Source: Dehalococcoidia bacterium (GTDB taxonomy: Bacteria; Chloroflexota; Dehalococcoidia; SM23-28-2; RBG-16-64-32). Taken from it: 64,000 bases of DNA. The translations under genes were made by a program, and so were the position numbers. Positions 8,664 to 41,681 of this stretch are shown here, piece by piece. The notes under the pieces were generated by a model, which did no database searches, was not told the origin of the DNA, and was given only the letters and a program-made list of their open reading frames with translations. Location of the stretch: contig CAXXTF010000001.1 in assembly GCA_963665775.2 (NCBI GenBank), forward strand, positions 576,001 to 640,000. Reading direction: 5' to 3'. The stretch's first letter is position 1. Each line of letters begins with the position of its first letter.

Positions 8664-8756
8664 CTGCGTTAACCTAAATTATATCAGGGCGAATGCCCTC
8701 CGTCTGAAGAAGAGACGTTTCTGTTGTCCAGGCGTTTCCCTTCTTGGCTGGTCTCC

Positions 8757-8792
8757 GGCCAGGGCTCTAGCCAGCGCTCTGGCCAGCGCCTA
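8757..8792 (+). repeat. Three imperfect 12-bp direct repeats upstream of ECF sigma promoter
   Basis: GGCCAGGGCTCT / AGCCAGCGCTCT / GGCCAGCGCCTA; TGcTAGAAT at 8805-8813. Confidence 0.55.
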
Positions 8793-8828
8793 CTACCGCC
8801 TCCTTGCTAGAATGGGCCTCGAAGCCAG

Positions 8829-10141: not shown

Positions 10142-10152
10142 GGTGCGAGGAT

Positions 10153-10941
10153 ATGAGAATCAAGGCTTTCGCTTTACTGACTGCGGCTTTCGCCACCATC
10201 GGACTGGTGGCCGCTGCCTGCGGCGGCGGTGATAGCGTACAGGCCGTCCCCGGCAACGGCGATGCCGGCGCGACAGGCGGGCTAGCGGCCCTCCAGAACG
10301 GGGCCGGCGGTCAGCTTCAGGGCATCGCCGTTGCCGGGGACGGCGTCATAACCGCTGAGCCCGATACCGCCTCCCTTTCCCTGGGTGTTACGGTCTTCGC
10401 CGACACCGTCGTTGCCGCCCGTGCCCAGGCCGCTGAGGCGATGAACGATCTCCTAGAATCCGTCAAGGGTAATGGTGTCCTCTCTGACGATATCAGGACC
10501 ACCCAGTTCACCATAAACCCGGAGTTTGACTACTCTCGTTCCGGCGAGCCGCGGATTACGGGCTACCGGGTGACGAACACGGTCTCCGTCAAGGTGCGGA
10601 ACCTGGACAGCGTGTCCGATGTCATCGACGATGCCGTCCTGGCCGTGGGCGACCCCATCCGCATCGGCGGCATCTCCTTCACCGTCGATGACCCCACCCC
10701 GTTCCTCTCCCAGGCCCGGGCGGTCGCCATAGGCAACGCTCAGACCAAGGCTCAGGAGCTGGCGGATCTGGCCGACGTGACCCTCGGCAAGCCGTTTGCG
10801 ATCAGCGAGTCTTCCGGCGGCGGCCCCTCGCCCGTCTTCTTCGAGGCTGCAAGGGTCGCGGGCGATAATGCCGTTACGCCCATCCAGCCCGGCCAACTGG
10901 AGCTAACGGTCAACGTTCAGGTTGTTTACGCAATCCAATAG
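10153..10941 (+). CDS. SIMPL (DUF541) domain lipoprotein
   Basis: Lipobox AAAC; GDGVITAEPDTA, GYRVTNTVSV, PIQPGQLELTVNVQVVY. Confidence 0.9.
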   Translation: MRIKAFALLTAAFATIGLVAAACGGGDSVQAVPGNGDAGATGGLAALQNGAGGQLQGIAVAGDGVITAEPDTASLSLGVTVFADTVVAARAQAAEAMNDLLESVKGNGVLSDDIRTTQFTINPEFDYSRSGEPRITGYRVTNTVSVKVRNLDSVSDVIDDAVLAVGDPIRIGGISFTVDDPTPFLSQARAVAIGNAQTKAQELADLADVTLGKPFAISESSGGGPSPVFFEAARVAGDNAVTPIQPGQLELTVNVQVVYAIQ

Positions 10942-10983
10942 CAGTATCTGGCGGGTTTGTAGTGCGTTACAGGAGCGGAAGGA

Positions 10984-11997
10984 GTGATCGTAATGAACCG
11001 TAGATTGTTCGGGCTCAGCGCCCTGGTAGTGGCGGGCGTAGCTGTCCTCGGCCTCGCCTGTGGCGGCGACGGCGACGACGGCGACGACGAGGTCGCCATC
11101 CGTACCGAGAAGGGGCTCTCTGTGGCTGCCCTGACCCCTGGGGGCGGCTTCGGTGGCGATACGGTTGCTGGTGCGCAGGGCGGTGCCCCCGGGCTGGAGA
11201 TCGCTGTGCCCGCCCCCGCTGCCGGTTCTGAGGGGGCAGCCATCGCCGTCCCTGGCTTTGGTATCGACCCTGCACCCTTTCAGCAGCAGGGACAGACCGG
11301 CATCACCGTCCAAGGCTTCGGCTCCGCCACCGTTGACGCCGATACGGCCGTCCTGGAACTGAATTTCGGTATCGACTACGACTATCCGGTCAGGCCCGTC
11401 CCAGCGCCTCTGCCTCTGGATGACGCCACTTCGACCAGCGACGGGGACTCAGCGCCCGTTATCGATGAGCCGGTGCTGCCGGATGAGGTCCAGCCGATTA
11501 CCGAGGCGGAGCTGGCACCCGTTATCGACGCCATCGTCGCTCAGGGCGTCGCGCGGAGCGATATCGAGTTCGTCGGCAGCCCCTTCTACGACCGCTACTT
11601 CAGCAGCGCCACCCTGCGCGTGACCGTCCGCGACCTGGATGCTCTGGACGGCATCGTCGACGCTGCCACCGCTGCCGCCGCCAACCTGGCCGAGATCGGG
11701 TTCCAGGGTAGCTACGTCTCCTACACCGTCAATGACTGCGCCGCACTGGAGAAGGCGGCGCTGCAGGCGGCCGTCGTGGATGGCGGCGAGCGCGGGGCCA
11801 TCTTCGCCGATGCCCTGGGCGTGGACCTCGGCGCCGTCATCAGTGCCAGCCACTACATCTACTCCTTCTACGGCGCTAACCCCTGCGACCCTGTTTTCGA
11901 TGGTCCCTACCCCTTGGGTGGCATCTCCTATTTCCAGGGCCAGCCCAAGCAGGTGCAGCTGATCAGCAACGTCAGCATCACCTACGCCATCCAGTAG
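10984..11997 (+). CDS. SIMPL (DUF541) domain lipoprotein, divergent paralog
   Basis: Lipobox GLAC; GITVQGFGSATVDADTA; ends VSITYAIQ like the upstream paralog. Confidence 0.75.
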   Translation: MIVMNRRLFGLSALVVAGVAVLGLACGGDGDDGDDEVAIRTEKGLSVAALTPGGGFGGDTVAGAQGGAPGLEIAVPAPAAGSEGAAIAVPGFGIDPAPFQQQGQTGITVQGFGSATVDADTAVLELNFGIDYDYPVRPVPAPLPLDDATSTSDGDSAPVIDEPVLPDEVQPITEAELAPVIDAIVAQGVARSDIEFVGSPFYDRYFSSATLRVTVRDLDALDGIVDAATAAAANLAEIGFQGSYVSYTVNDCAALEKAALQAAVVDGGERGAIFADALGVDLGAVISASHYIYSFYGANPCDPVFDGPYPLGGISYFQGQPKQVQLISNVSITYAIQ

Positions 11998-12005
11998 CCA
12001 CTTCG

Positions 12006-12040
12006 TGTGGGGGCCGGAACGAATGTCCCGGCCCCCACAC
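12006..12040 (+). terminator. Stem-loop after SIMPL operon
   Basis: GTGTGGGGGCCGG...CCGGCCCCCACAC. Confidence 0.65.
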
Positions 12041-12271
12041 GGCAACTCCGGCGTTGACTAATCGGGTCTCCCTCTGCCACAATTTCCCCGCTATGACCGT
12101 CCTCAGCTTCCTCCGCATGTCCACCCCCGTAGACCGGCCCCACTCCTTCCCGTGTCTATCAGGATTTCCCGCCTGACTCCTCCTGAGCGGCGCCACGGCG
12201 CTCTTTCGACAGGCTCAGCCCGGGCGGGCGTCTAGGTTCCAGGCTCCCGCGTCTGCGATAATGTTCACGCT

Positions 12272-13381
12272 ATGACCAGCGACCCGATGCAGCGCGCCCT
12301 GGAGCTGGCCCGCGGCGCCCTGGGCACCACCTCCCCCAACCCCACCGTCGGCGCCGTCCTCACCGGCCCCGATGATGCCATCGTGGGCGAGGGGTCCACC
12401 CAGCCGCCGCCCGGCCCCCATGCGGAGATCGTCGCTCTCCGCCAGGCCGGCCCGCGGGCCCGCGGCGCCACCCTTTACGTCACCCTGGAGCCCTGCCCTC
12501 ATCAAGGCCGCACGCCTCCCTGCGCCGATGCCATCATCGCCGCCGGCGTCGCCGAGGTCCGCTACTCGCTGGCCGACCCCGACCCCAGGGTCGACGGCGG
12601 CGGCCACCGCGCCCTGGAGGCCGCCGGCATCCGCGTCGTGCCCGGCGCGGGTGAGGCCGAGGCGCGCCGCATCAACGAGGCGTTCATCAAGCACCGCACC
12701 CGTGGCCTCCCGTTCGTCGTCGCCAAGTTTGCCGCTTCTCTGGACGGCCGCATCGCCGCCGCCTCCGGCGATTCCCGCTGGGTCTCCGGGCCGCAGACGC
12801 GGGAGTGGGCGCATCGTCTCCGAACCGAACTGGACGCCATCCTCGTCGGCTCTTCCACGGTCATCGTTGACGACCCCCAGCTGACCGCCCGCCCGGGCGA
12901 CCGCGAGGCCGAGCGTCAGCCTCTGCGCGTCGTCGTCGATACGCGCGGCCGCGTGCCGCCCATGGCCCGCGTCCTGATCGGTCCCGGCCGCACCATCGTC
13001 GCCACGGCGGACAGCTCCACCGCACCTTGGCGCGCCGCCATCAAGGCCACGGGCGCCGAATTACTCATCCTCCCCAGGCGCGGCGACCGCGTAGACCTCC
13101 TGGCCCTGCTCCAGGAGCTGGCCCGCCGCGATATCGTCTCCGTACTGGTCGAGGGCGGCGGCGTTATCCTCGGCTCCTTCTTCGACCGGGGCCTCGTCGA
13201 CAAGCTCCACGCCGTCATCGCCCCAATGATCATCGGCGCCGCTGACGCCCCGGCCGCCGTCGCCGGCCAGGGCGCCTTCCGCCTGGCCGACGCCCTCCGC
13301 CTCCGCGATGTGACCCTGGAGCGGCTGGGAGACGACATCCTGGTGACCGCTTACCCCGTCTCTCCGGAGGTGCCGTCTTGA
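12272..13381 (+). CDS. ribD: Riboflavin biosynthesis deaminase/reductase
   Basis: TSPNPTVGAV, HAE, TLEPCPHQGRTPPC, SLDGRIA, VEGG. Confidence 0.96.
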   Translation: MTSDPMQRALELARGALGTTSPNPTVGAVLTGPDDAIVGEGSTQPPPGPHAEIVALRQAGPRARGATLYVTLEPCPHQGRTPPCADAIIAAGVAEVRYSLADPDPRVDGGGHRALEAAGIRVVPGAGEAEARRINEAFIKHRTRGLPFVVAKFAASLDGRIAAASGDSRWVSGPQTREWAHRLRTELDAILVGSSTVIVDDPQLTARPGDREAERQPLRVVVDTRGRVPPMARVLIGPGRTIVATADSSTAPWRAAIKATGAELLILPRRGDRVDLLALLQELARRDIVSVLVEGGGVILGSFFDRGLVDKLHAVIAPMIIGAADAPAAVAGQGAFRLADALRLRDVTLERLGDDILVTAYPVSPEVPS

Positions 13382-13521
13382 GCCGTCGCCGCAGCCGGGC
13401 CATGCGTCGCCGGGGCCGAAGGGTCGGCCGGCCGGCGGCTCGCGTCTCCGTCTGGATATTAATGCTGCTGGCCCTGGTCGTACTCGCTGTCGGCCTTGCC
13501 CGCGCTCTCCCTGCGCCCTAG
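13378..13521 (+). CDS. 47-aa small membrane protein (not in ORF track)
   Basis: GGAGG RBS, TTGA overlap with ribD stop; MSRRRSRAMRRRGRRVGRPAARVSVWILMLLALVVLAVGLARALPAP. Confidence 0.55.
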   Translation: MSRRRSRAMRRRGRRVGRPAARVSVWILMLLALVVLAVGLARALPAP

Positions 13522-13583
13522 CCTTGACCGGCCCTCGTCCACCCTATACCTTGGTTCCGCCGTACCCCACAACATAGGGGAGA

Positions 13584-14099
13584 ATGACGATGACAGAGAG
13601 CAAGCTCGTGGGACTCCTGTTCGACTCCTGGGACGACCTGGACCGGGTCATCGCCGGCCTTGACCCAGAGGAAGCGGTCGCAAGCGCCGACGGCGGCAGC
13701 TCGTTCGCCTGGACCGTCGCTCAGCTGGCGAGCCAGGTCGATGGCTCGATCAACGTCCGGTTCCAGAAGCGAGACCCCCATCAGCTTATCGGGCAAGGTC
13801 GCTTTCGGGCGGGCGGTAGCGGCGCCGCTCAGGAGTGGCAGGCTATTCAGGCGGCTGTCCGCGAGGTCAGGAAATCCGCCCAGGCTTATCTGGAGGGGAT
13901 GGACGACGGCGACCTCAACCTCGTAATCCCCTACGAGGGCTCTTTCGCGCTCCTCCGGGAAACGGGCATCAGCCTCCGCCATGCCCTCATGCGCAGCTGT
14001 GCCCATCACTACTTCCACATCGGCGAGATCGCCGCCAAGCGCAATCTCCTGGGGCACGAAGTAGGGGATTACCCCGGCCTGTTGGCTCAGTCCATCTAG
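13584..14099 (+). CDS. DinB/YfiT-like protein
   Basis: W.DLDRVIAGL...SFAWT...HHYFHIGEI, a four-helix metalloprotein pattern. Confidence 0.75.
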   Translation: MTMTESKLVGLLFDSWDDLDRVIAGLDPEEAVASADGGSSFAWTVAQLASQVDGSINVRFQKRDPHQLIGQGRFRAGGSGAAQEWQAIQAAVREVRKSAQAYLEGMDDGDLNLVIPYEGSFALLRETGISLRHALMRSCAHHYFHIGEIAAKRNLLGHEVGDYPGLLAQSI

Positions 14100-14154
14100 C
14101 CGGATACATCTCTCGTTTGCTCGTTATCGCGGCTGCCTATACGCTTATCGCGCC

Positions 14155-14742
14155 ATGTTCACCGGCATCATTGAGGAGATAGGCACGATCCGAGAGGCCG
14201 ACCGCGGCCACCTGATCATCGCCTGCCAGAAGTCCCTCCGCGACACCAAGCTGGGCGACTCCATCGCCATCAACGGCGTAGACCTAACCGTCATGCACAT
14301 TGATGACGAATCCCTACACTTTCAGTGCATGCCGGAGACGTATCGCCGCTCCAGTCTGGGCCAGCTCCGCGCGGGCGATCCCGTCAACCTGGAGCGCTCC
14401 CTTACCCTGGCCAGCGGCATCTCCGGCCACCTCGTTCGCGGTGTCGTAGAGGCCACCGGCGAACTCCTCTCCCTCATCCCTGAAGAGGACGCCCTCCTCG
14501 CCCGTTATAGCGCCCCCCCGGATATCCTCCGCCATACCGTGGTCAAGGGCCCCGTCACCGTCGATGGCGTCTCCCTCACCGTCATCACCAAGGACGACCG
14601 CTCGTTCACCGTCTCGCTCGTCCAGTACACCCAGGAGCACACGAACCTCACCCGCCGCGAACCCGGCCATGCCGTAAACTTGGAGAGCGACATCATCGCT
14701 CGCTACGTCGACCAGCTACTCGCTGAGCGGGAGACCCGCTGA
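14155..14742 (+). CDS. ribE: Riboflavin synthase (alpha chain)
   Basis: MFTGIIEE, GDSIAINGVDLTV, VNLER, VDGVSLTV. Confidence 0.95.
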   Translation: MFTGIIEEIGTIREADRGHLIIACQKSLRDTKLGDSIAINGVDLTVMHIDDESLHFQCMPETYRRSSLGQLRAGDPVNLERSLTLASGISGHLVRGVVEATGELLSLIPEEDALLARYSAPPDILRHTVVKGPVTVDGVSLTVITKDDRSFTVSLVQYTQEHTNLTRREPGHAVNLESDIIARYVDQLLAERETR

Positions 14743-31283: not shown

Positions 31284-32966
31284 CTAGAGCCAGCTGGAGC
31301 GGATGTCGCCATCGATGACGGCGTCAATAAGGCGGGGCTCTGCCGCGGCCTGCGCCTCGCGCACGGCGTCCCCGATCTCATCCGGGCGCTCGATGCGGAC
31401 GCCTTTGACGCCGAAGCCGGAGGCGATATCGACGAAGTCTATAGGCGGGTCGGTCAGGTCCATCGCCGTGAAGCTGCGTCCCACGGCGTTCGCGCCGAGG
31501 TAGTCGAGCATGTTGAGCTTGAGAATGCGGTAGGAGGCGTTGTTGAGGATCACCCAGGTGACGGGGATCCGGTGGTGCGCCGCTGTCCAGAGGGCCTGGA
31601 TGGTATAAAGGGCGGCTCCGTCGCCTACAACCGATAGGACGGGTCGGTCTGGCTGGGCGAGCTTGAGGCCCAGGGGTGCCGGCATGCCGGGGCCCAGGCC
31701 CCCGCCGCTGGCCCGGAACTGCGAGCCGGGCTGGGGGAAGCGCAGGTAGCGCATGACGTAGCCGCCGGCGGTGACCGACTCGTCGAACACGAGGGTGCCC
31801 GGGACGAGGGCGTCGGCCAGCTCTTTCAGCAGGCGGCCGTTGGCGATCGGCACGTTGTCCCACCTCGTGTGCGCGGCGGCGTCCAGGATTTGCATTATCT
31901 GCTCGTTCATCTTCTGTACGGTGGCGGCCCGCTCCTGGGCGGCCTGACGGTAGGCGGGCGTGAGGCGCTGCTCCAGAGCGGTCAGCAGGTCGGTTAGGGC
32001 TGACTTCGGATCGGCCAGGAGGCCCAGGTGTATGGGCCAGTTCTTGCCCAGCTCCCAGGGATCCAGGTCGATGTGCGCTATGGTCGCCTCCTCCGGAAAG
32101 GGAGATTCGTCTATGGGGAAGAGCAGCGGCAGGACGGACGTGCCGACGGCCAGGATGAGATCGGCGGAGGAGAGCTGGCCCCTGAGGCCGGGGCCGGAGA
32201 TGGCGTTCAGGAGCCCCCCGTAGAGGGGATGGTCAGAGGGGAAGGGGAGTTCGGCGGAGAAGGAGGCGTGGACACGGGCGCCGATGCTCTCGGCGAGCTG
32301 GACGAGCTCCGGCTGGGCGCCTGAGACGGCGACGCCATCACCGCAGATGATGAGGGGCGATTTGGCCTGCGCGATAAGCTCGGAGAGGCGCTCGACAGCT
32401 TCTGGGTCGGGCCGCGGCAGGGCGCTGGCGTAGGCGGCGGGAACGATCTCCACGTCGGCCTCTTCGTCCATCAGGTTCGTGGGGACGGAGAGGAAGACTG
32501 GGCCACGGGGAGGGTCCATGGCTACTTTGAACGCTCGTCGCAGGAGGAGGGGGATCTCGGCTGGGTCTTGCGCTTCGACTGCCCACTTGGTGACGGGCTG
32601 AGCCAGCCGAACGAGGTCGCCGGCCAGGATCGGCTCCTGGGAGGCGCCGCGCTGGGGGTGCTGGCCGGCGTACAGTACCAGGGGTGTGTGGGTGCGGAAG
32701 GAGTTGTAGAGCATGCCCATGGCGTTGCCCAGGCCGGGCATGATGTGGAGTTGGACGAAGGCGGGGCGGCCGCTGGCCCGAGCGTAACCGTCGGCGATGC
32801 CCAGGGCGACCCCCTCGTGCAGGGCGAGGATGTAACGCAGCTGCGGGTAGTCCTGAAGGGCGTCCATAAACGCCTGTTCCGTGCTGCCGGGGTTTCCGAA
32901 GACGTGCGTGACGCCCTCGGCGGTTAGCTGCTCGATCAGGGCCTGACGTCCGCTCAGCCTGGGCAT
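31284..32966 (-). CDS. Thiamine-diphosphate enzyme, benzoylformate decarboxylase-like
   Basis: VFGNPGSTE, LHE..A..IADGYA, GDGAALYT.QALWTAA, ILNNASY.ILK. Confidence 0.9.
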   Translation of the reverse strand: MPRLSGRQALIEQLTAEGVTHVFGNPGSTEQAFMDALQDYPQLRYILALHEGVALGIADGYARASGRPAFVQLHIMPGLGNAMGMLYNSFRTHTPLVLYAGQHPQRGASQEPILAGDLVRLAQPVTKWAVEAQDPAEIPLLLRRAFKVAMDPPRGPVFLSVPTNLMDEEADVEIVPAAYASALPRPDPEAVERLSELIAQAKSPLIICGDGVAVSGAQPELVQLAESIGARVHASFSAELPFPSDHPLYGGLLNAISGPGLRGQLSSADLILAVGTSVLPLLFPIDESPFPEEATIAHIDLDPWELGKNWPIHLGLLADPKSALTDLLTALEQRLTPAYRQAAQERAATVQKMNEQIMQILDAAAHTRWDNVPIANGRLLKELADALVPGTLVFDESVTAGGYVMRYLRFPQPGSQFRASGGGLGPGMPAPLGLKLAQPDRPVLSVVGDGAALYTIQALWTAAHHRIPVTWVILNNASYRILKLNMLDYLGANAVGRSFTAMDLTDPPIDFVDIASGFGVKGVRIERPDEIGDAVREAQAAAEPRLIDAVIDGDIRSSWL

Positions 32967-33093
32967 GGCAGGGGCTCCTTTCAGGTGAAGAGTATCACAG
33001 GGTGGGCGGTCCAGAGGCCGCGTTTTCGTCGTCTCGATGGCGGACACGGCAACCGGTCGAAGGTTGCGCACCCCTCGACCCTTCTGTTCGCTA

Positions 33094-33107
33094 TGGTGGT
33101 GCATACG
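33094..33107. repeat. att site (copy of tRNA-Glu 3' end)
   Basis: 13/14 identity to 41105-41118. Confidence 0.8.
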
Positions 33108-33159
33108 TCCGCCGTATTGCGTCCTATTTCATAGCTAAATCACGGGATATTCTTCCTGT

Positions 33160-33182
33160 CATATAACAATTCATACACCATT
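33160..33182. repeat. Putative integrase arm-type site (left)
   Basis: CATATAACAATTCATACACCATT, 18/23 identical to 40959-40981. Confidence 0.65.
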
Positions 33183-33419
33183 ACGAGTTGGTATTCTCTA
33201 GAACGCTAGGGGCCAAATTGGACGTTACTGGATTGTAGAGTGTCCGATAGATTCTCTCCTACGACGAGACAGGGATCGGAAGAGCTGGTCTCTAAGTTGG
33301 AGACCCTGAAACTGGCCATGGTGCTGCTGGAGGCTTCGGGTTGACCTTGCCCCCGAAAACAAGTCCAGGCCCAATGTTAGTAATCAGGGGTTCTGGACCA
33401 GAGAAAGGGGGCAGAAGGA

Positions 33420-33698
33420 TTGGGCAGGCAGCATCACACGGCAGAGGAGATCATCAACAAGTTGAGGGAGGCGGAGGTCGGGCTGGCTAAGGGCCTGGCT
33501 GTGCCCGAGGTCTGCAGGAAGCTGGGCGTGGCAGAGCAGACCTACTACCGCTGGCGGAAGGAGTAGGGCGGCCTGAGGAGGGAGCAGGCCAAGCGGCTGC
33601 GGGAGCTGGAGCAGGAGAACCTGCGGCTGAAGAAGCTGGTAGTCGATCTCTCCCTGGACAACGCCATCCTGAAGGAGGCGGCGCAGGGAAACTTCTGA
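33420..33698 (+). pseudogene. IS3 transposase OrfA with premature TAG at 33564
   Basis: HTAEEIINKLRE...CRKLGV.EQTYYRWRKE*GGL...RLRELEQEN.RLKKLV.DLSLD. Confidence 0.88.
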
Positions 33699-33721
33699 GC
33701 CCGGCCAAGAGACGACAGGCG

Positions 33722-34584
33722 GTGGCCTGGGTGCGGAATGCGTTGGGCCACGCGGTCATCTCGGAGCGCCGGGCCTGCCAGGCCCTGGGGCAGGAGCGAT
33801 CGACGCAGCGGCGGTGGGGTTCTCCTCCCGACGATGAAGGGAGGCTGCTGAGGCGGATGGTGGAGCTAGCGACCGAGTACGGGCGCTACGGTTACCGACG
33901 GGTAACCGCCCTGCTGCGAGAGGAGGGTTTTCGGGTGAATCACAAGCGGGTAGAGCGGCTCTGGCGGCGGGAAGGGCTGAAGGTGCGGGCGAAGCAGCCG
34001 AAGCGGAGGCGGCTATGGTTGACAGACGGCTCCTGCGTTAGGCTCAGGCCGACTGAGCCCAACCACGTCTGGAGCTACGACTTCGTGTTTACCCGCACCA
34101 GCGACGGCCGTCCCCTGCGGCTCTTGACGGTGCTGGACGAGTTCACAAGGGAGTGCCTGGCTATCCAGGTGGCGAGGCAGATCACCAGTGATGACGTGCT
34201 GGCACGCCTGGCCCAGCTCTTCGTCGAGCGCGGGACGCCTCGCTACCTGCGCTCGGACAACGGGCCAGAGTTCACGGCACGGGCGCTCCGGACCTGGCTA
34301 GAGCGGGTAGGCGTGCAGACTCTGTATATCGAGCCCGGGAGCCCCTGGGAGAACGGCTACATCGAGTCGTTCAATGGGAAGCTACGTGATGAACTATTGA
34401 ATGGGGAGGTGTTCGACACGGTGCTGGAAGCACAGGTCCTCTGCGAGCGGTGGCGACGGAACTAAACGAGGTGCGCCCGCATAGCGCTCTCGGCTACCGG
34501 CCGCCAGCACCGCAAGCGATCGTGCCATGGCCGGGCTCCACCGCGCCATCCCTGGAGACTACGGCGATGGCCACACTAACATAG
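33722..34584 (+). pseudogene. IS3 transposase OrfB (DDE), frameshifted near C-terminus
   Basis: YGYRR, WSYDF, RSDNGPEF, ENGYIESFNGKLRDE; stop at 34465, then NEVRPHSALGY continues in another frame. Confidence 0.88.
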
Positions 34585-34660
34585 CCTGTGGTAGCGTTTA
34601 GGGGGGCAGGTCACTCACCAGAGTTGCCTTGCCTTTGTGTCCGCTACTTTCTGTTGAGGA

Positions 34661-35722
34661 TCAACCCTTGCAATTGGGCGCTCCGTCCATGGTCACGGTC
34701 GGCAGGATTTCGTGGACGCGCCTCTGGGCATCATGCTCTAGGTGCCTAGCCAGTAGACGGTCAACGGTCCGCACCTTCCTCACACCAAGCACCGACGCTA
34801 CTTCATGGTCGGAAAGGCCGCTGGCCCTTAAGTAATAGGCGAAAGCCGACCTGAGTTCAGCTGCTGTCATTGCCGGCACACCTACACGAGAGCAGGCTTC
34901 CCGGACGGTATCTCGGACGGCTCGCGAAGTCAGCGGTTTGGGGTCGCACCTACCCCGTGGGAAAACGTAGCCTTCCGGTCCCACTGGCGGCTGATTGGCC
35001 AGGTGGGTTTTAAGGTGGAACATGGCGTCATTAATGATCCGTAGCCTCAACGGCCTGCCGCTTCGCCATACCTCCACCAACATTGGAGTTGGCTCATGAT
35101 CTCGGAAGAGTTGGCGGGTCTTAAGCGTCACTATTTCTCTAGGATGCAGTCCGGTGAAGCAGTGCAGGGCTAGGAGAGAGCGATTTCGGATGTCCCTGTA
35201 GTTGCTTCCGGGAAAGGCCTTCTCGACCAGTAGTTTGAGCTCTGCAGGCGATAGAGTGGGATTTCGTGGGCGTCTCCTACTCTTGGCTCCAGCGACGATC
35301 GTGCCCGCGTCATGCCACGAGCCGTTCCCCTTGGACGGCAGGAGGGCGTCAAGGGAGCTCATGAAGGCGTGGGCGTCCGGCACTTCCACGTCCGCACCGC
35401 AGAGCGCTACGAACCTGTGGGCGGCGATGAGTCTCGTGCGTCCCGCGGACGCCGATATCCAGGTTGACGGGTGGAGCAGGATGTCGCTCAGGATGCCTGG
35501 ATTCCGGAAGATTGTGGAAGGTGTAAAGTTCCTTCTCTGGGCCTCTCGGAAGAGACTTTTAAGCTGCGAGACCTCCTTCTCAACCGTTGCCCCGCTGCAG
35601 CCCTCGCTGGGTCTGCGTCTGCGGTACAGTCGAAGGAGATCCTCCGACTGGGCATCGACCGGGCTCTTGGTGTTTACAGAGCGCCGGTCTAGGGCCGCCA
35701 ACTGAAAGAGAGGCTTCTGCAT
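34661..35722 (-). CDS. Tyrosine-recombinase-fold protein lacking catalytic residues
   Basis: RNRSLLAL...TGLHPRE (R->H), TAAELRSAFA (HxxR->AxxR), VLGV, TVDRLL (no Tyr). Confidence 0.8.
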   Translation of the reverse strand: MQKPLFQLAALDRRSVNTKSPVDAQSEDLLRLYRRRRPSEGCSGATVEKEVSQLKSLFREAQRRNFTPSTIFRNPGILSDILLHPSTWISASAGRTRLIAAHRFVALCGADVEVPDAHAFMSSLDALLPSKGNGSWHDAGTIVAGAKSRRRPRNPTLSPAELKLLVEKAFPGSNYRDIRNRSLLALHCFTGLHPREIVTLKTRQLFRDHEPTPMLVEVWRSGRPLRLRIINDAMFHLKTHLANQPPVGPEGYVFPRGRCDPKPLTSRAVRDTVREACSRVGVPAMTAAELRSAFAYYLRASGLSDHEVASVLGVRKVRTVDRLLARHLEHDAQRRVHEILPTVTMDGAPNCKG

Positions 35723-36759
35723 TTATCCGGTGGTTCCCTGTTGGCTTGGCTGCTGGCCGCAGCCATCTTCTCGGCGATGCTACGCACCTGAGGTCTGATG
35801 TAGTGATCGTCCATCCGTTCCAGGCCCTGCCATCCTCCGGCCAAGGCCACTGTATATCGTGGAAGGATCGCTGCCGCCTCGCTGGCGAACGCACGCCGGA
35901 AGGCATGCAGGCGGTAGGCGCGGGTTCCGGCGGCGAGGCAGGCCTTCTGGAACGTTTGCCGAACGTTGGGGTAGGACCATTGTGCGATCCAAGTGCTTCG
36001 CCAGAGGGTGGTACTTTCGCCTCCGATGAGCTGCTCTAGCGTGCCATGGAGCCATGCCCGCTCATTGAATTCATCGATGTAGGCGAACAGAAGCCTGCGT
36101 GCGTGGGGAGTAAGTTCGATCTCGCGAGGCTGGCAACGTCCCTTGGCGTGGAGCATCAGCCGGGCAGTACCCATCGGAAGCACAACCAGATCGGCGCAGC
36201 TGGCTTCGCGGAGGGCGTTGACCCTGCTGCCACTCTCGTAGAGTATGGTGAAGAACGCCTCGTTGCGGCGTCCCTTGAAGGTCAGTGCTCGGGCGGCCTC
36301 CCGGATGATGGCGGCGACGTCATCGGGGCTCGGTGCCGGGCCGCCTCGGCGGCGCGGCGCCCCGCCGGTCAGGATGAATCGCCCACCAACGCGCAGGGCC
36401 GACCGGCGCAGTGCTACAGTGACGATCCCCAGGGGCTCTCGGCCAGTCAGTCGCCTTAGTTCCGGGCTCATGAGCCTTGCGAAGGATTGGACTGCCGAGC
36501 GGCGTTGGTCCAGCGTCCACTTCGACAGTTGACGTCCCTCACTTGATCTATCGTCTACCAACGCCTGCCCTAAAGCCTCGGGATGAAGGAACAGCGCCAT
36601 GAACCCTTCGGGGCTTGCCGCCGTCTCGGCAAGGGAATGCAGCTGGTAGACGTATGCCTGGACGGTCTTCTTGGCTGCGCCCGTCGCAACCAGCCTGCGG
36701 CGGTAATTCTCCAATTCAGCGCTGGGACGCCGGTTGGCAGTTGCTTGACGCCTCGCCAT
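35689..36759 (-). CDS. Tyrosine recombinase, catalytically complete
   Basis: RNEAFFTILYESGSR, AKG, LHAFRR, AGGW, MDDHY. Confidence 0.88.
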   Translation of the reverse strand: MARRQATANRRPSAELENYRRRLVATGAAKKTVQAYVYQLHSLAETAASPEGFMALFLHPEALGQALVDDRSSEGRQLSKWTLDQRRSAVQSFARLMSPELRRLTGREPLGIVTVALRRSALRVGGRFILTGGAPRRRGGPAPSPDDVAAIIREAARALTFKGRRNEAFFTILYESGSRVNALREASCADLVVLPMGTARLMLHAKGRCQPREIELTPHARRLLFAYIDEFNERAWLHGTLEQLIGGESTTLWRSTWIAQWSYPNVRQTFQKACLAAGTRAYRLHAFRRAFASEAAAILPRYTVALAGGWQGLERMDDHYIRPQVRSIAEKMAAASSQANREPPDKCRSLSFSWRP

Positions 36760-36815
36760 CGAACGGATTTCCACCGGCGATACGCCGGTTCCGGCAAGAG
36801 ATGGCTGAAGGGCTA

Positions 36816-37729
36816 TCAGCACCGATCCCTCCCATCCGAAACTCGCGAGCTCGGCAAGGCGCCTCCGTCCTTGAGTTGGGCCTCCAGCTCCCTGATCTGC
36901 CGGATGGCCCCTCTGTGCCTGGCCTCGAGGTCGCTGTACTTTCCCTGCCACTGGTTGATGCTGGATTGTAGACCTCGGTTGGTCTCACGCTGCCTGGTGA
37001 ACTCCTCCTCTCGCTCCAGCGTACTCCCGGTCTGGGAACGGATGAACCGCACCCGGGCCTGCAAGTCCTCGTTCCGCTCCTTTGCCAACCGAAGCTCAAA
37101 CTCAAGAGAATCCACATGGGCCGCCAATCGCTGCATCCTCGTGGGGGACTTGAGCTCGTCGCCCCGTCTCGCCTGCGTGGCGGCGGCCTTCGCGGACATC
37201 TCCACACTGGCCACCCTGTCTCCCAATCCCGCCTCCTCGGCGGCCAATTCAGCGTTGGATTTGGCCGTCCCCGAAAAGTGGCACTCGGTCCCACATTAGG
37301 TGTTTTCGCGAGGTCATCTGAGCTTTCGGAGGCATTTGGCAGACTCTTGGCTTTGGGCATCCCGGCTTTATACGAGTCCCGGCAGCGCACCACGCAGGCG
37401 GCCTTCTGGCTCGCCGTGAGATGGCGCCGCTCCGCATTGCGGGACACCACGAAGGAGATGGGAGACTCACCGCTGTACGGCTTGAAGATCAATTGGCTGG
37501 CAATGCCCAGGTCGGTTGCGGCGCGATAGCGGTGCCAGCCGTCCAGCACCATGCCGTCCAGGGTCCATATGACCGGCTCGAGCACGCCGTTCGCCTCCAT
37601 GTCGGCAACGAAACTGGAATAGTCGTCCTCGGATCTGTCGCCCCAGATGGATGACAGGTCATGCCGCTTGTCCGGCATCGCCATGTCCTCGGTAAGAAGG
37701 TCTTCATAGTCCAGGTCGAATAGAGTCAT
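36816..37729 (-). pseudogene. ParB/Srx N-terminal domain protein with coiled-coil C-terminus, split by frameshift
   Basis: DM.ANGVLEP...VLDGWHRYRAA...SRNAERRHLT.SQKA; coiled-coil half lies in a different frame opening after ~37295. Confidence 0.7.
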
Positions 37730-37946
37730 CGAAGCCCCCTGCGGCATTGGAAACTTCCGTTTATGACGCGAAACTTCCGTTCTTGGCTTAGTAGTAGTAG
37801 GCGCAATCACTAGGAAGCACTTGGCAGGGAGCAATCCGTGGTCGTGCCAGATAACGCAGCTCGATTCGCTCTGACGCCTAGGTGGTTGGGTGGAGGGCGT
37901 GGCATGCGTGATGATCATTCCAGGCTCTCTGTTGTTCATTGGCGGA

Positions 37947-38174
37947 CTACTCAACCGCTGCGGGGTCGTAGGCACGTTCCGGCGCCGCCAGCCAGCCGTC
38001 GATGTCCGCCAGCCTCCAGCCGACTGACCGGCGGCCCAGGCGCAGCGGCTTCGGGAACCGGCCCTCTGTCATCAAGGGGTAGATGGTGGCCCGGGAAAGG
38101 CCGGTAAGAGCTTCGACTTCTTGACGCCGCAAGATCCGCCGGGCCTCAATCTCTGACTTCATGAGCACCTCCAA
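37947..38174 (-). CDS. alpA: AlpA family regulator / excisionase
   Basis: RILRRQEVEALTGLSRATIY..M.EGRFPKPLRLG.RSVGW. Confidence 0.93.
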   Translation of the reverse strand: MEVLMKSEIEARRILRRQEVEALTGLSRATIYPLMTEGRFPKPLRLGRRSVGWRLADIDGWLAAPERAYDPAAVE

Positions 38175-38427
38175 GTTCCTGATCGCCTCTTCTGCCTATG
38201 ATCAGAAACCCGGTGGGTACTTGTCATGGATTGGAAAATGGCCGATTTTCTGAGCCTTTTTTGCCCCACGGGTGCGAATATCGAAGTTTATGGGGCAAAA
38301 ATGCGGCTGTCCCGAAGAGAATTAATGCCCCACGTCCTAGTCGCCAAGGATCGGGGGCGACGGTAAAGGGACGGCGAGGCCCGGTGCGGGACCCTGCGAG
38401 CTATAGGGACATGCTGTGGGGGAAGCT

Positions 38428-39717
38428 CTAGCCCAAGTAGGAATACGGGCGACGACCGCCCCGAAAATGTCGTCCTACAAGAAAGAAGGTTGGAGTGTCC
38501 GGCACACTACCATCGAATTCTTCCAAGAGGTAGTCCTCGGCCTCATCAACGTCGATGTGCTCAAGCCCACTTATGCCTCCTTGCCCCCGGAATTTGAACC
38601 ATATCCGCTTCACGGTGTAGAACGAGAGGCCCGTGGCCCGTGCAACCGCGTCGCAGGCGCTCGCCGATTGGGACGGCTCGTCATTGCGTGTTGGCTTCAT
38701 GCCTAGAGCCATGAGCTCCCGTATTGCCTTCTGGATCGTGAAGGAGCGGAAGGGGACCGTAGGTCGGCCCCTCTTCGACAATGGGCGGCTTATCCTTCGT
38801 TCCAAGGCGTCGTTTCGCCACTTCATCAGATTTGCAGGGATCTCATCGCCTTGATGCTCGACACCATAGCTTAGTCGTTCGTAGATGAGCTGAAGCGCGT
38901 CCCACCTCACTGCGTTGTTTCGTGACTCGGCAATGAGCATGCCGGGCTCTTCTAGCTTGCTTCCCCTGAAGAGCCAACCCTTTGCGAGTGCGCGCGCCGC
39001 GTCCTTCGCTGTCCGGCGAATTGACGATGCAACTTCCAGCAACGGCTTGATGATAACGACGGCTTCATCGACTGTCGGCGGCGTCTTGCTATTCTTCCAC
39101 CGGTCCCTGCATTGCGCGTATGTCCAACCTGCTTCGGACGCCTCCCACGATTCCCGCGTTGCCTCCTTGAACTCTAGCAAAGCCTGACGCCCTGCGGCGA
39201 AGTCTCCGGCCATGATTGCTTGCTCCATCCTCTCCTCGAGCTCAGGGGCTCTATACACGCAATAGATGATCAACAGGTCAAGATACGAAAGGCCGAAGAG
39301 AGAATCAGGAAAGGACGCCTGCGAAGAACGTTGGATAGAGATGGGTTCAGCGACTGTCGGCGCGATCTGATAGGTTAACCGTTGTGCTAATATTGCGGAT
39401 TCCAGCGCTCCCATAGTCGCTGCGAAGCCTGTGAAGCCTCGAATGACCGGCGCGCATTGTACTGTCAGCGCTCTTTGGGTTGTTGCAATGTGCCTAACGA
39501 GCGGGTCGAGGGTTGCATTCAGCGCTTCCATAGTCGCTGCGAAGTCTCTAAGGAATGGGGCGAGTCGTTCTGTCAGTGGTCGTTGAGTTGCTGGACCATC
39601 CGGCACCGATAGCGGTATCAACGCCTCTGCCACCGTTTTCTTACGTCCCAGCATGGCCTTAGGGGACGGGGACGGCGACGTCCACGGGCTGATCGGCTGC
39701 GTCGTCCGCTCCTTCAT
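38428..39717 (-). CDS. Hypothetical element protein with C-terminal HTH-like region
   Basis: 429-aa ORF directly after the integrase; KRGRP...SACDAVARATGLSFYTVKRIW; short internal repeat FAATM.AL. Confidence 0.65.
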   Translation of the reverse strand: MKERTTQPISPWTSPSPSPKAMLGRKKTVAEALIPLSVPDGPATQRPLTERLAPFLRDFAATMEALNATLDPLVRHIATTQRALTVQCAPVIRGFTGFAATMGALESAILAQRLTYQIAPTVAEPISIQRSSQASFPDSLFGLSYLDLLIIYCVYRAPELEERMEQAIMAGDFAAGRQALLEFKEATRESWEASEAGWTYAQCRDRWKNSKTPPTVDEAVVIIKPLLEVASSIRRTAKDAARALAKGWLFRGSKLEEPGMLIAESRNNAVRWDALQLIYERLSYGVEHQGDEIPANLMKWRNDALERRISRPLSKRGRPTVPFRSFTIQKAIRELMALGMKPTRNDEPSQSASACDAVARATGLSFYTVKRIWFKFRGQGGISGLEHIDVDEAEDYLLEEFDGSVPDTPTFFLVGRHFRGGRRPYSYLG

Positions 39718-39744
39718 GTCGTCGAACCGTCGGGCCTGCTCACA

Positions 39745-40980
39745 CTATAAGCCACGTCGCACCATCGGGACGGCTATTCCGGCCCTGTCACTCAGATACT
39801 CTGCCCACTGCGCCATGAGCCGCCGTCGCCGCTCGAACAGGTCAGACCTGGCGTAGGCAGCCTCCGTCGTGTTGGCAACCACGTGCGCAAGTGCCGCCTC
39901 CATCACCGCGTGCGGCGTGTCCGTACGCTCAGCCGCCCAATCCCGAAAGCTGGACCGAAAGCCATGGGGGACGGCATCGATGCCCAGCTTCCGCAGGAGG
40001 TTTCTGTGCGTCATGTCCGAAAGGGCCCCTCCGGATCGCGGTGCGGGGAATATCAGGATGCTCTTGCTGTCGAGACTCCTGGCCCCGTCCAGGACTTCGA
40101 GCGCCCGCCCTGACAGAGGGACGCGATGTTCGCGCCCGGCCTTCATCCGCTCAGCAGGCACGGTCCATGTCTCAGAGCCGGAGTCCACTTCCTCCCATCT
40201 TGCCTGACGCACTTCCCCGGAACGGGCAGCCGTCAGGACGAGAAACTCGAATGACAGCTTGGTGACTAGCGCAGCATACGACTCCCGGACAGATCGTAAC
40301 ACTTCTCCAACTTCTGAATATGGTACTGTCCGGTGGTGGGTGGCGATCCGGGGGCGCCGGGGCAACGCCTGGCTGATGGCCTTGCCAGCTGGGTTGTCGG
40401 TGCGGAACCCGTTTGCCACTGCCCAGTCCATGACTGCCGAGATACGCTGCTTTACTCGCCGGGCGGTCTCCGGCTTGGCTGTCCAAATCGGGGTCAACGC
40501 GGAGAGAACGTCCTGGCCGCTCACCTCATCAACAGGTAAAGCTCCAAGCCTAGGGAAAGCGTAGGCCGACAGCGTCATCTCCCATTGGTAGACGTGCTTC
40601 GCGTTGCTCCAGGTAGGACGGTGGAAGTCGATCACCTGCCTCGCCGCCTCGGCGAATGTGGGCACGGCCCGACGATGCTTCTCCGCGATCGGGTTGCCCC
40701 CCTCTCGGGCAAGCTTACGGTTCGCTATGGCCTTTTCTCTTGCCTCGTGGAGCGACACTGTGGCACAACCGCCGAGGCCCAAGTTGCGCCGCTTCCCACG
40801 TATGACGATACGCTGTACCCACCGCTTGGCTCCTGAGGGATCGACGAGGAGATAGAGTCCGTTTCCGTCAGCGTACATCCCCGGCCGCCTCTCGGTGCGC
40901 ACACGTGCTGCCGAAAGGGCATTGATCGGATGCTTGCCTTTGCTCTTAGCACCTTTAGTATATGCCAATTCATATGCCAT
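39745..40980 (-). CDS. P4-like tyrosine integrase with arm-binding domain
   Basis: YADGNGLYL.V...GAKRW, LTAARSGE, MKAGREHRVPL, HGFRSSFRDW, LAH, AAY. Confidence 0.96.
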   Translation of the reverse strand: MAYELAYTKGAKSKGKHPINALSAARVRTERRPGMYADGNGLYLLVDPSGAKRWVQRIVIRGKRRNLGLGGCATVSLHEAREKAIANRKLAREGGNPIAEKHRRAVPTFAEAARQVIDFHRPTWSNAKHVYQWEMTLSAYAFPRLGALPVDEVSGQDVLSALTPIWTAKPETARRVKQRISAVMDWAVANGFRTDNPAGKAISQALPRRPRIATHHRTVPYSEVGEVLRSVRESYAALVTKLSFEFLVLTAARSGEVRQARWEEVDSGSETWTVPAERMKAGREHRVPLSGRALEVLDGARSLDSKSILIFPAPRSGGALSDMTHRNLLRKLGIDAVPHGFRSSFRDWAAERTDTPHAVMEAALAHVVANTTEAAYARSDLFERRRRLMAQWAEYLSDRAGIAVPMVRRGL

Positions 40981-40981
40981 T
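40959..40981. repeat. Putative integrase arm-type site (right), overlapping int start
   Basis: TATATGCCAATT-CATATGCCATT tandem repeat. Confidence 0.65.
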
Positions 40982-40990
40982 TCTTATGAG

Positions 40991-41019
40991 ATTCTAGCAG
41001 AACGCATGAGCCAAGTCAA
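40991..41019 (-). promoter_or_regulatory. Integrase promoter
   Basis: TTGACT-17 nt-TAGAAT with TG extension, 10 nt before ATG. Confidence 0.65.
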
Positions 41020-41104
41020 GCCTCTTAGGGCAGTGAATCAAGACTAATTCAGGTAGAGGATGGGTGATAAGAGGATGCTCTTCAAGGAAATCGGAAGGGG
41101 ATAG

Positions 41105-41181
41105 TGGTGGCGCATACGGGATTCGAACCCGTGATCTCCGCCTTGAGAGGGCGGCGTCCTGGGCCACTAGACGAATGCGCC
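41105..41181 (-). tRNA. tRNA-Glu(CTC)
   Basis: Anticodon arm CCGCC-ctCTCaa-GGCGG, T-loop GGTTCGAATCC, CCA end. Confidence 0.95.
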
Positions 41182-41186
41182 AGGAT

Positions 41187-41260
41187 TGGCTGCGGGACTA
41201 GGATTCGAACCTAGACTAACTGATCCAGAATCAGCCGTGCTACCATTACACAATCCCGCA
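41187..41260 (-). tRNA. tRNA-Gln(CTG)
   Basis: Starts TGCGGGA, anticodon loop ttCTGga, GGTTCGAATCC, GCCA end. Confidence 0.95.
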
Positions 41261-41336
41261 GGGACAAGCTGATTCTAGCAAAGTGCCGCTAGGCGGGCAA
41301 ACGCCGAGAACGGCTATGGGTCAGGCAATGATACCT

Positions 41337-41374
41337 GGCTACCGCAGACTTCGTCGGGCCGCCTTCAGCCTCTC
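41337..41374 (-). repeat. Displaced copy of gltX 3' end
   Basis: 35/38 identical to 43163-43200; reads ERLKAARRSLR* vs ERLKSARRRLR*. Confidence 0.85.
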
Positions 41375-41681
41375 TATGGCGGGCTCGCCCGTGATCGATT
41401 TCCAGACTCGGCAGGCCGTCCAGGGGTACCTTGAGCCGGAGTGAAGGCCGCTGGCAGCAGTCCGTTGTCGCACATTTCGACGATGGCTAGGAAGCCGTCC
41501 TCAAGGGAGGGGAACTGGTAGATCCTCAGGTGCCTTTTAGCTATCTACGCCTCGTCGCCGGAATATAAAGGATCCTTCGATTGACTGCGTGGCCTCGAAG
41601 CCCCATACTGCCGTCTGCGGAAGCACACTAGCTATTTATGCCGCGACCGGTCTGCACTGCATCTGAGGAGGAGGAAGCGCG

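Follow-up and report, generated by a model that had tools for sequence, protein, structure and literature searches.

In the usual description, tyrosine recombinases form tetramers whose subunits can all cut, with activity switching between pairs of them. The locus described here raises the question of what a recombinase-fold protein without the catalytic tyrosine does when it is encoded directly beside a complete one. In a 64,000-nucleotide stretch of DNA from a Dehalococcoidia bacterium, referred to as the window in the following, two such genes, A and B, overlap within an integrative island. A natural pair with one subunit that never cuts, conserved over long times, would show how non-cleaving subunits activate their neighbors. 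It would also bear on the way in which one-strand-pair reactions are completed, for which relatives of B with a fused RuvC domain suggest a concrete answer, and it would provide a compact marker for Chloroflexota integrative elements that are now annotated merely as ‘integrase’. The features of the region are listed below in window coordinates.

33342 to 34613, plus strand: decayed IS3-family element with rve, rve_3 and HTH_21 domains
34661 to 35722, minus strand: gene B, tyrosine-recombinase-fold protein without the catalytic tyrosine, 353 aa
35689 to 35722, minus strand: overlap of the 3' end of A with the start of B, 34 nt
35689 to 36822, minus strand: gene A, tyrosine recombinase with a complete catalytic set, 377 aa when read from GTG 36822
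36816 to 37975, minus strand: gene with a ParB-like N-terminal domain and a coiled-coil C-terminal part, interrupted by a frameshift in the A-run 37274-37277
37947 to 38174, minus strand: AlpA-family regulator, excisionase-like (PF05930, E = 1.1e-21)
38428 to 39717, minus strand: 429-aa ORF of no recognized family (no match in Pfam, NCBIfam, PADLOC or PHROGs)
39745 to 40980, minus strand: P4-type integrase of the island (Arm-DNA-bind_3, PF13356; Phage_int_M, PF22022; Phage_integrase, PF00589)
41105 to 41181, minus strand: tRNA-Glu(CTC), integration site flanking the integrase (ARAGORN)

Gene A and its partner without a nucleophile

Gene A has all the features of a live tyrosine recombinase. 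Its match to the Pfam family PF00589 exceeds the cut-off (29.1 versus 27.1 bits), a SAM-like N-terminal domain is recognized (E = 3e-4), and the full R-K-H-R-(H/W)-Y set is present in the motifs GSR, K, HAFR, GGW and DHY, as the earlier note on this DNA had read them. The corresponding residues R200, K227, H306, R309, W331 and Y341 show no variation among the 25 homologs aligned; 109 homologs were found altogether. The dN/dS of A is 0.46 for the closest pair and 0.31–0.39 for pairs with unsaturated dS. The start at ATG 36759 that had been assumed for A is probably too short: the protein has 377 residues in the public collection, and the upstream segment LQPSLAGTGVSPVE is conserved in homologs. 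GTG 36822, which overlaps the stop of the upstream ParB-like/coiled-coil gene, is most likely the true start.

In B, the motif letters GLHPRE, AELR, LGV and DRLL given by the earlier note are likewise correct, and in its catalytic columns the tyrosine is replaced by leucine, the histidine of HxxR by alanine, the H/W residue by valine and Arg-I by histidine. Nevertheless, the protein matches PF00589 with 39.0 bits against the cut-off of 27.1. Its AF2 model (pLDDT 80.5) finds a chain of a Cre/loxP complex, 2hof_B, as its best Foldseek match (E = 4.5e-9, prob 1.00, TM 0.43/0.48). B thus has the fold of the tyrosine recombinases, yet, having neither the nucleophilic tyrosine nor the catalytic His/Arg set, it is not an enzyme of the PF00589 family. 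No closer assignment emerges for either protein. At E ≤ 0.01, NCBIfam yields only four generic Xer-type models for B, all far below their cut-offs; with 37 bits for A and 29.6 bits for B, both fall well outside the XerC and XerD equivalogs (cut-offs 335 and 330), and PDB sequence searches with A and B return no solved recombinase at E ≤ 1.

The state of B is old and shared. Homologs of A and of B each reach E = 1e-117 to 1e-130, and the observation is therefore not a matter of chance. None of 19 close homologs of B has the tyrosine, and dN/dS values are low, at 0.26 in the closest pair and 0.26–0.40 across the 14 closest pairs. Both observations argue against a recent pseudogene, an outcome for which the earlier note had allowed. 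Its list of losses, however, holds for the family only in part: the loss of the tyrosine is family-wide, whereas that of Arg-I is lineage-specific, GLR being kept in 17 of the 19 close homologs. Arg-II is invariant among them. In the wider family (76 full-length representatives), the tyrosine column holds leucine in 54 of 68 sequences and tyrosine in one; this lone exception, P0197, is without Arg-I and has lysine at the position of Arg-II. The H/W column contains neither histidine nor tryptophan in any of 69 sequences, and among the 96 representative clusters at E ≤ 1e-30, all of which were examined, a complete catalytic set occurs in none. By contrast with these losses, the C-terminal helix (RH.ALDAQRRV) is very strongly conserved and is the most conserved part of the protein; a weak HTH_23 match in the C-terminal region lies below its cut-off (E = 7e-4). 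As the B of the window has also lost the Arg-I that most relatives keep, its function may, judging from its sequence, be further degraded.

Conservation and surroundings of the pair

As previously noted, A and B are two co-oriented, overlapping ORFs on the minus strand. This arrangement recurs, with a start/stop overlap of 4–34 nt in seven of the eight loci examined, which would couple the translation of the two genes. At all 13 loci where the DNA upstream of B is readable, one of them a second copy in the same genome, the gene immediately preceding B is A. Conversely, all nine matches of A at E ≤ 1e-30, two in the window's own genome and seven in 192 genomes of a related order, have B downstream. 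A broader profile, A3, lacked specificity: it matched 155 of 192 genomes, in most cases hitting ordinary recombinases via the catalytic domain only, and its matches were used only at E ≤ 1e-65. The pairwise identities of A and B are closely correlated (r = 0.98, a value reached by 1 of 5000 permutations), and the pair is kept across 28–85% identity. The reading frame of B is intact in the window and at 12 other loci; broken copies of the module also exist, one a remnant of B alone (L054) and one with a frameshifted A (L043).

Given the family-wide absence of the tyrosine, the purifying selection and the constant presence of A upstream, the view of B as a conserved and selected partner stands. 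Other expectations raised by the earlier note fared less evenly. The live and dead genes do recur together in other genomes, but not in the company of the ParB-like and AlpA genes. Nor are A and B close paralogs, as their common architecture had suggested: BLASTP aligns them at E = 0.043, and matches between their profiles reach only 1e-11 to 1e-16. The proposed structure prediction of the A+B complex was returned with the tool's verdict ‘weak support’. The predicted assembly has a median ipSAE of 0.46 (best of three controls 0.00), at least 72% of contacts in agreement between runs and a partner pLDDT of at least 78. In the benchmark, 58 of 80 solved complexes and 2 of 110 mismatched pairs passed the mark; passes at 0.60 or under came from only 7 of the 80 solved complexes and from both of these mismatches. 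Since Cre and Xer tetramers have already been solved, the pass may reflect likeness to them only.

What the relatives share beyond the pair itself is a large serine recombinase, encoded downstream of B at 10 of the 14 loci whose DNA extends for 1 kb or more beyond B; at three loci with shorter downstream DNA, the start of this gene can be seen as well. At six loci, an excisionase-like HTH gene lies between B and the serine recombinase. The genes of this module are on one strand and tightly spaced, and the module adjoins a tRNA gene at three loci (L041, L042 and L018). The serine recombinases lose identity in parallel with A and B. Four loci, the window included, have intact A and B genes but no serine recombinase.

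In the window, a decayed IS3-family element begins 47 bp past the stop of B, where most relatives have the serine recombinase, several of them together with the excisionase-like gene. Direct reading of this insertion reveals terminal inverted repeats, in-frame stops and flanks that do not match. With the usual downstream genes absent and the decayed element after B, the A-B module of the window may be a stranded remnant. Upstream of A, the ParB-like N-terminal part of the neighboring gene has PHROG matches (best named E = 1.6e-7), followed by matches of coiled-coil type. The contrast that had been drawn between B and its ‘decaying neighbours’ is only partly apt, as the break in this gene is a one-base difference from other strains in the A-run: one extra A after 37273 is present in the assembled contigs of sequencing runs X8 and X13 and absent from X3. 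The RNA run X20 has no contig on A or B, the island is little covered in X13, and the joints listed for the runs have sides of fewer than 40 letters and are recorded as ‘between: not known’. The statement that the element has a P4-type integrase of its own proved right; the protein has arm-binding, central and catalytic domains, and the tRNA-Glu gene lies 125 bp away.

Searches for sites of recombination defined no recombination site, terminal repeats or att sites in the loci searched. A search with the 3' part of the tRNA-Glu gene (21 nt, up to 3 mismatches) found no second copy in the window. Repeats over 32900-41400 are short two-copy families, none of them convincing, and no convincing repeats were seen at L041, L042 and L045. 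No 10-mer upstream of A is common to three or more of eight loci. One 21-nt repeat (33219/36952), which brackets A, B and the insertion element, was judged to be due to chance, with one copy inside the coiled-coil ORF. As to distribution, samples of 401 genomes of the phylum, with at most 3–5 candidates scored per genome, gave matches to the A, B or fusion profiles in the window's own genome only. Viral contigs contained no match for B or the RuvC fusion, plasmids contained no match, and phage records contained a single match of 26.6%, to the RuvC part of the fusion only.

A possible division of labor and its alternatives

Our preferred explanation, which we hold with about even confidence, is a fixed recombination module of two genes, A and B, in Chloroflexota integrative elements, with B as the obligate non-catalytic partner of A. 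We infer that A would be the sole catalytic subunit, while B would supply a full-length two-domain fold without the nucleophile and both histidines, but with Arg-II, the conserved C-terminal helix and, in most relatives, Arg-I. Produced in fixed proportion from the overlapping genes, the two proteins could bind an asymmetric core site, each at one of its two unlike half-sites, and thereby form an A2B2 synapse, to which B would contribute DNA binding and those subunit contacts that normally switch on neighboring subunits. Cleavage and exchange would then be confined to the A-bound strands, and the reaction would halt at a Holliday junction, to be completed by a junction resolvase or by replication. 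Each pair-bearing element has an integrase of its own, a serine recombinase, in several cases with an excisionase-like gene, or, in the window, the P4-type enzyme with AlpA. Consequently, the job of the pair is more likely a second reaction than ordinary integration; multimer resolution, upkeep of the excised circle or one of the steps by which the element moves would be candidates.

The resolvase could be the host's own RuvC, a canonical form of which is encoded in the host genome, or, in three distant relatives, a RuvC domain that is part of the B-like protein itself. These relatives (P0198, P0221 and P0223; 538–543 aa) match the B profile at E = 4e-38 to 9e-30 and end in a RuvC Holliday-junction resolvase domain (PF02075, E = 1e-12 to 1.6e-7). 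D383, E443, D525 and D528, compared with the catalytic residues of E. coli RuvC, are invariant in them, and a profile of the fusions picks up the B of the window at E = 7.4e-27. Such fusions are rare, with three fused proteins among five relatives in 5.8 billion proteins. At the level of domain composition, they lend indirect support to a Holliday junction as the outcome of cleavage by one subunit type. It is conceivable, but on balance doubtful, that this extends to the entire B superfamily as split-chemistry recombinases: a live tyrosine recombinase would carry out the first exchange, its dead partner would hold the other two half-sites, and a RuvC-type nuclease, part of the dead protein in some lineages and contributed by the host in others, would cut the junction, the Chloroflexota operon with its serine recombinase serving mobility or maintenance through a mixture of recombinase chemistries.

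The frequent serine recombinase invites an explanation that we regard as somewhat improbable, though it merits attention: A, B, the excisionase-like HTH protein and the serine recombinase could constitute one multi-recombinase mobility module at the end of the element, of which the window would hold a truncated copy, rescued by or nested in the P4-integrase island. The shared strand and tight spacing, the adjoining tRNA genes and the parallel divergence of the serine recombinase with A and B all fit this idea. On the other hand, the four loci without a serine recombinase retain A and B intact, and a large serine recombinase acting as an integrase is normally self-sufficient with its excisionase. 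The terminal repeats or att sites of such a module were also not defined in our searches, and no mixed tyrosine/serine transposition module was found in the literature searched. Analogs would be the intA-tfp-intB-srap operon of SE elements, ginABCD of GInts and tnpABC of Tn554, the serine recombinase standing where these have a large second tyrosine recombinase. The SE and GInt operons likewise lie at the element end, are translationally coupled and need a member without the tyrosine.

Three further explanations concern B alone. It may be an independent DNA-binding regulator or architectural protein, such as a repressor or a binder of accessory sites, that stays outside the catalytic tetramer. 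B keeps both DNA-binding domains of the fold and is under purifying selection, and the sub-threshold HTH_23 match would be in keeping with such a role. We nevertheless consider it unlikely, because the strict proximity of B to A, the overlap of their genes and their close co-divergence are more suggestive of a physical partnership, and a RuvC fusion would make little sense in a protein that only regulates. Moreover, the C-terminal region, which in the Cre fold contacts the neighboring subunit, is where B is most conserved. For Tfp of the SE elements, DNA binding without processing has been proposed by its authors (PMC10214605). If B instead entered the tetramer only to poison it, as a built-in, dominant-negative inhibitor that keeps recombination rare, coupled expression would provide constant damping. 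Dead subunits are reported to block half of the sites in engineered mixed Cre tetramers (PMC8789052). But if one transcript yields inhibitor and target at a constant ratio, nothing is regulated, the retention of the pair over its wide range of identities and its co-divergence fit a required partner better, and Tfp and GinC are required rather than inhibitory; we thus think an inhibitor quite improbable. Finally, B could be a functionless, decaying duplicate of a recombinase gene, as might be suspected from the additional loss of Arg-I, the decayed insertion element next to it and the broken copies elsewhere. With its frame intact at 13 loci, its low dN/dS, no complete catalytic set in any of the 96 clusters and A always upstream, this appears scarcely credible.

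Comparison with known systems

The obligate, non-catalytic partner that we favor would have precedents that the earlier note missed in its survey: Tfp of SE elements (PMC10214605) and GinC of GInts (PMC5385486), recombinase-fold proteins without the tyrosine, are genetically essential beside live recombinases. By its description, B resembles them in fold, motif and operon: it lacks the catalytic motif and shares an operon with a live tyrosine recombinase, as set out for Tfp and GinC (PMC10214605). Their genes are coupled in translation with those of live recombinases, in operons that sit at one end of the integrative element and genetically require the protein without the tyrosine. There are also differences. 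Tfp has at least 550 residues and the fold only in its center, whereas B has 353 and the complete two-domain layout. Tfp lies between two live tyrosine recombinases, followed by the small protein Srap or GinD, while A-B includes a single live one, and at the loci with a third recombinase this is of the serine type, unlike in the Tfp and GinC systems. Tfp is found in Gamma- and Betaproteobacteria, without homologs elsewhere according to its authors, and B in Chloroflexota. RIT elements (RitA/B/C) and Tn554 (TnpA/B/C) likewise have several adjacent recombinase-fold genes that act on one element, but all of these keep the catalytic tyrosine or RHRY motif (PMC10214605), and B does not. In the literature searched, with subscription journals outside its scope, we found no description of a natural two-gene pair of a live and a dead tyrosine recombinase, nor of a recombinase-fold/RuvC fusion.

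Of the known structures, the model of B matches chains of the Cre-loxP synapse best, and A has tryptophan at the H/W position, as does Cre. Unlike A-B, Cre is a homotetramer with four competent subunits. Mechanistically, a parallel to the proposed A2B2 complex would be XerC/XerD on CTX attP or plasmid cer, where a heterotetramer of two related subunits on unlike half-sites has one cleaving subunit type, the non-cleaving subunit is structurally required and host functions finish the junction (PMC5357621). In CTX-phage integration, XerD is needed but non-catalytic, the junction being finished by host replication. XerD, however, is catalytically competent and used as such at dif, whereas the inactivity of B is hard-wired.

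A complete recombinase and a partner without the tyrosine

The pair consists of two genes, referred to as A and B in the following:

35689-36822, minus strand: gene A, 377 aa, most likely starting at GTG 36822
34661-35722, minus strand: gene B, 353 aa, overlapping the end of A at 35689

The earlier note's overlapping minus-strand pair stands, but its start for A, ATG 36759, does not: GTG 36822 is the most likely start, because a public collection calls A as a 377-aa protein and the stretch LQPSLAGTGVSPVE, 5' of ATG 36759, is kept among A homologs. A scores 29.1 bits against the Pfam tyrosine-recombinase model (cut-off 27.1), and the full catalytic set attributed to it is borne out, with R200, K227, H306, R309, W331 and Y341 invariant across A and 24 homologs (30-58% identity). 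With none of these residues missing, A is an enzyme with a full active site, its H/W residue being Trp.

B scores 39.0 bits against the same model (cut-off 27.1). Among 19 close homologs (35-56% identity), its Tyr position never holds Tyr, the HxxR His and the H/W residue are missing, and Arg-II (R291) is invariant. Arg-I is kept in 17 of the 19, the exceptions being the window copy (His) and P0004 (Leu); of the Arg, His and Tyr described as lost from B, close homologs thus retain only the first. When 1.84 billion representative proteins were searched by profile, 96 relatives came up at E ≤ 1e-30, a number rising to 278 at E ≤ 1e-10. We compared 76 full-length sequences (at least 300 aa), namely 72 from the 150 best listed hits and four family seeds, not all of which are among those 150. 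The Tyr column holds Leu in 54 of 68 and Tyr only once, in P0197, a protein with no Arg-I and with Lys in place of Arg-II; His or Trp occupies the H/W column in 0 of 69, and Arg is found at Arg-I in 38 of 74 and at Arg-II in 43 of 71. By these column counts, B belongs to an old, sizeable recombinase-fold family without a complete active site. The proposal that A and B are paralogs holds no further than a shared fold of ancient origin (cross-profile hits of 1e-11 to 1e-16); the two are not close kin (BLASTP E = 0.043).

B is a real, folded protein under selection. Its AlphaFold2 model (pLDDT 80.5, 19-sequence alignment) finds as best Foldseek matches the Cre chains of loxP synapses (E = 4.5e-9, probability 1.00, TM 0.43/0.48), followed by archaeal XerA, XerH and other recombinases. 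By the Nei-Gojobori method, the two closest B sequences (dS 0.35) have a dN/dS of 0.26, and values over the 14 closest pairs are 0.26-0.40, not near 1; the figures for A are 0.46 in its closest pair and 0.31-0.39 among those whose dS is unsaturated. Conservation in B is strongest in the C-terminal helix (RH.ALDAQRRV), not in the dead pocket. That B is decaying is contradicted by this selection and conservation, and we find it hardly credible.

Within A and B, the window differs from the strain in sequencing run X8 at three positions (34765, 35892, 36488), all amino-acid changes (V320L in B; A311T and Q112R in A), a sample too small for interpretation.

Recurrence and neighborhood of the pair

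The live and dead genes recur together elsewhere. We distinguish 23 B loci, two of them in this genome (the one in the window and a second copy), nine in genomes of a related order and 12 on metagenome contigs. A lies directly upstream on the same strand in all 13 loci with readable DNA before an intact or near-intact B, a count that leaves aside nine loci at contig edges, where the upstream gene is unreadable. Conversely, B lies downstream in 9/9 A matches at E ≤ 1e-30 (two in the same genome, seven in 6 of 192 related-order genomes), and its start overlaps the end of A by 4-34 nt in seven of eight loci. Across eight loci, the pairwise identities of A and B correlate at r = 0.98, a value reached by 1 of 5000 permutations. 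A and B form a unit. The module is rare: it was found in one of 401 sampled genomes of the phylum, this one, and B in 8 of the 192 related-order genomes (three of the 192 are flagged unpublished, with no positives among them).

Individual loci vary. The second copy in this genome (L045, G000:C2:82000-101999, genes at 7406-14298) encodes proteins 32% (A') and 28% (B') identical to A and B; it is preceded by a QatC-like gene (187 bits, cut-off 280) and a 278-aa gene and followed by a large serine recombinase, with every one of these genes on the same strand. In L043 (9874-12032), A is frameshifted and B intact; in L024, both are split; and in L054 (1519-2145) only a remnant of B is left, its C-terminal ~210 aa, which contains two stops and is not preceded by A.

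A large serine recombinase (Resolvase, Recombinase and Zn-ribbon domains) follows B in 10 of the 14 loci with at least 1 kb of downstream DNA, being absent from the window, L025, L027 and L043; its start is visible in three shorter loci. Six loci have a small excisionase-like HTH gene in between, and in three, L045 among them, A is preceded by a QatC-like gene and one of 260-278 aa. In three loci, the serine recombinase adjoins a tRNA gene:

L041, 13626-13700, opposite strand: tRNA at its 3' end
L042, 13958-14034, opposite strand: tRNA at its 3' end
L018, 2730-2806, opposite strand: tRNA at its 3' end

Since its 3' end reaches or overlaps these genes (tRNA-Asn once, tRNA-Glu(TTC) twice), a serine integrase may target tRNA genes for insertion in these relatives.

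Read from tRNA-Glu(CTC) onward, the window has a P4-type integrase, a 429-aa ORF, AlpA, a ParB-like/coiled-coil gene, A, B and a decayed IS3:

38428-39717: 429-aa ORF, between integrase and alpA
36816-37975, minus strand: ParB-like/coiled-coil gene, N- and C-terminal parts in different frames
33342-34613: IS3 remnant, 47 bp past the B stop, with in-frame stops and terminal inverted repeats

Because the stop of the ParB-like gene overlaps the GTG start of A, the stretch from alpA through the ParB-like gene to A and B resembles a single operon. AlpA and the ParB-like gene, which the earlier note named alongside the pair, do not travel with it, as the window's other island genes had no match in 12 comparison loci at E ≤ 1e-6. 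At the run of A nucleotides at 37274-37277, contigs of runs X8 and X13 (different studies) have one extra A, which puts both parts of the ParB-like gene in one frame, and run X3 matches the window there; this could be homopolymer strain variation or an assembly slip. Searches of Pfam, NCBIfam, PADLOC and PHROGs returned nothing for the 429-aa ORF, within which one direct repeat of 28 nt recurs 117 nt away and another of 29 nt 282 nt away. The window yielded no second att copy. Both ORFs of the IS3 are interrupted by in-frame stops, and the bases on its two flanks do not match; its position after B is consistent with, though no proof of, the loss of whatever once stood there. Its relatives abound in metagenome runs, with summed contig depths of hundreds to low thousands, versus ~10 for the flanks.

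A possible role for the dead subunit

Co-folding of A with B gave a median ipSAE of 0.46 over three runs, versus 0.00 for the best of three controls, with at least 72% of contacts agreeing across runs and a partner pLDDT of at least 78; the verdict was 'weak support'. Of 80 solved complexes, 58 reached the mark, as did 2 of 110 mismatched pairs; only seven of the complexes, together with both passing mismatches, did so at 0.60 or below. As recombinase tetramers have already been solved, the pass may reflect likeness to them rather than binding.

Our best reading, held with about even confidence, is that A and B make up one recombinase, in which B is obligate but non-catalytic. The two would assemble as an A2B2 synapse on an asymmetric core site, only the strands bound by A would be exchanged, and the reaction would be completed by a junction resolvase or by replication. 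Since a separate integrase is present in every element carrying A-B, this reaction would more likely serve multimer resolution, maintenance or an extra movement step than plain integration. The earlier note's asymmetric heteromer is partly supported in this form; the live/dead pair itself is confirmed.

Distant relatives of B offer a clue. P0198, P0221 and P0223, of 538-543 aa, match the B profile at E = 4e-38 to 9e-30 and have at the C-terminus a RuvC domain (PF02075, E = 1e-12 to 1.6e-7) that aligns with E. coli RuvC (1hjr, E = 1.7e-5); P0198 is annotated in one source as 'Holliday junction resolvasome RuvABC endonuclease subunit/integrase'. At 45-47% identity, the three share invariant acidic residues D383, E443, D525 and D528, which we take to be the RuvC catalytic tetrad; their recombinase-like halves lack Arg-I and Tyr, and their profile matches the window's B at E = 7.4e-27. 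Such fusions are rare (three of five relatives found); the unfused P0291 (375 aa) spans residues 15-349 at 47% identity. A dead subunit joined to a resolvase is to be expected if such subunits sit on a Holliday junction beyond their own processing. The host genome encodes its own RuvC.

A rival reading joins A and B with the HTH protein and the serine recombinase in a multi-recombinase mobility module like SE, GInt and Tn554; we consider this rather unlikely. That B acts as a stand-alone regulator seems quite unlikely to us, and a built-in inhibitor very improbable.

Comparison with known systems

B has its closest precedents in Tfp, from SE elements, and GinC, from GInts. These are recombinase-fold proteins without the catalytic motif, encoded in coupled operons with live recombinases at the element end and required for excision and integration (PMC10214605, PMC5385486). 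They differ from B in size (at least 550 aa versus 353 aa), in an operon with two live tyrosine recombinases and a small protein, and in their hosts, Gamma- and Betaproteobacteria. RIT and Tn554 recombinases all retain Tyr (PMC10214605), whereas B does not. Our functional model is XerC/XerD on phage CTX, where XerD is needed yet does not cut (PMC5357621). Searches of openly available full texts yielded neither a natural two-gene live/dead pair nor a recombinase-fold/RuvC fusion. The dead recombinase-fold partner is already known as a principle; not previously known are the B family, the two-gene form, the link to a serine recombinase and the RuvC-fused relatives.
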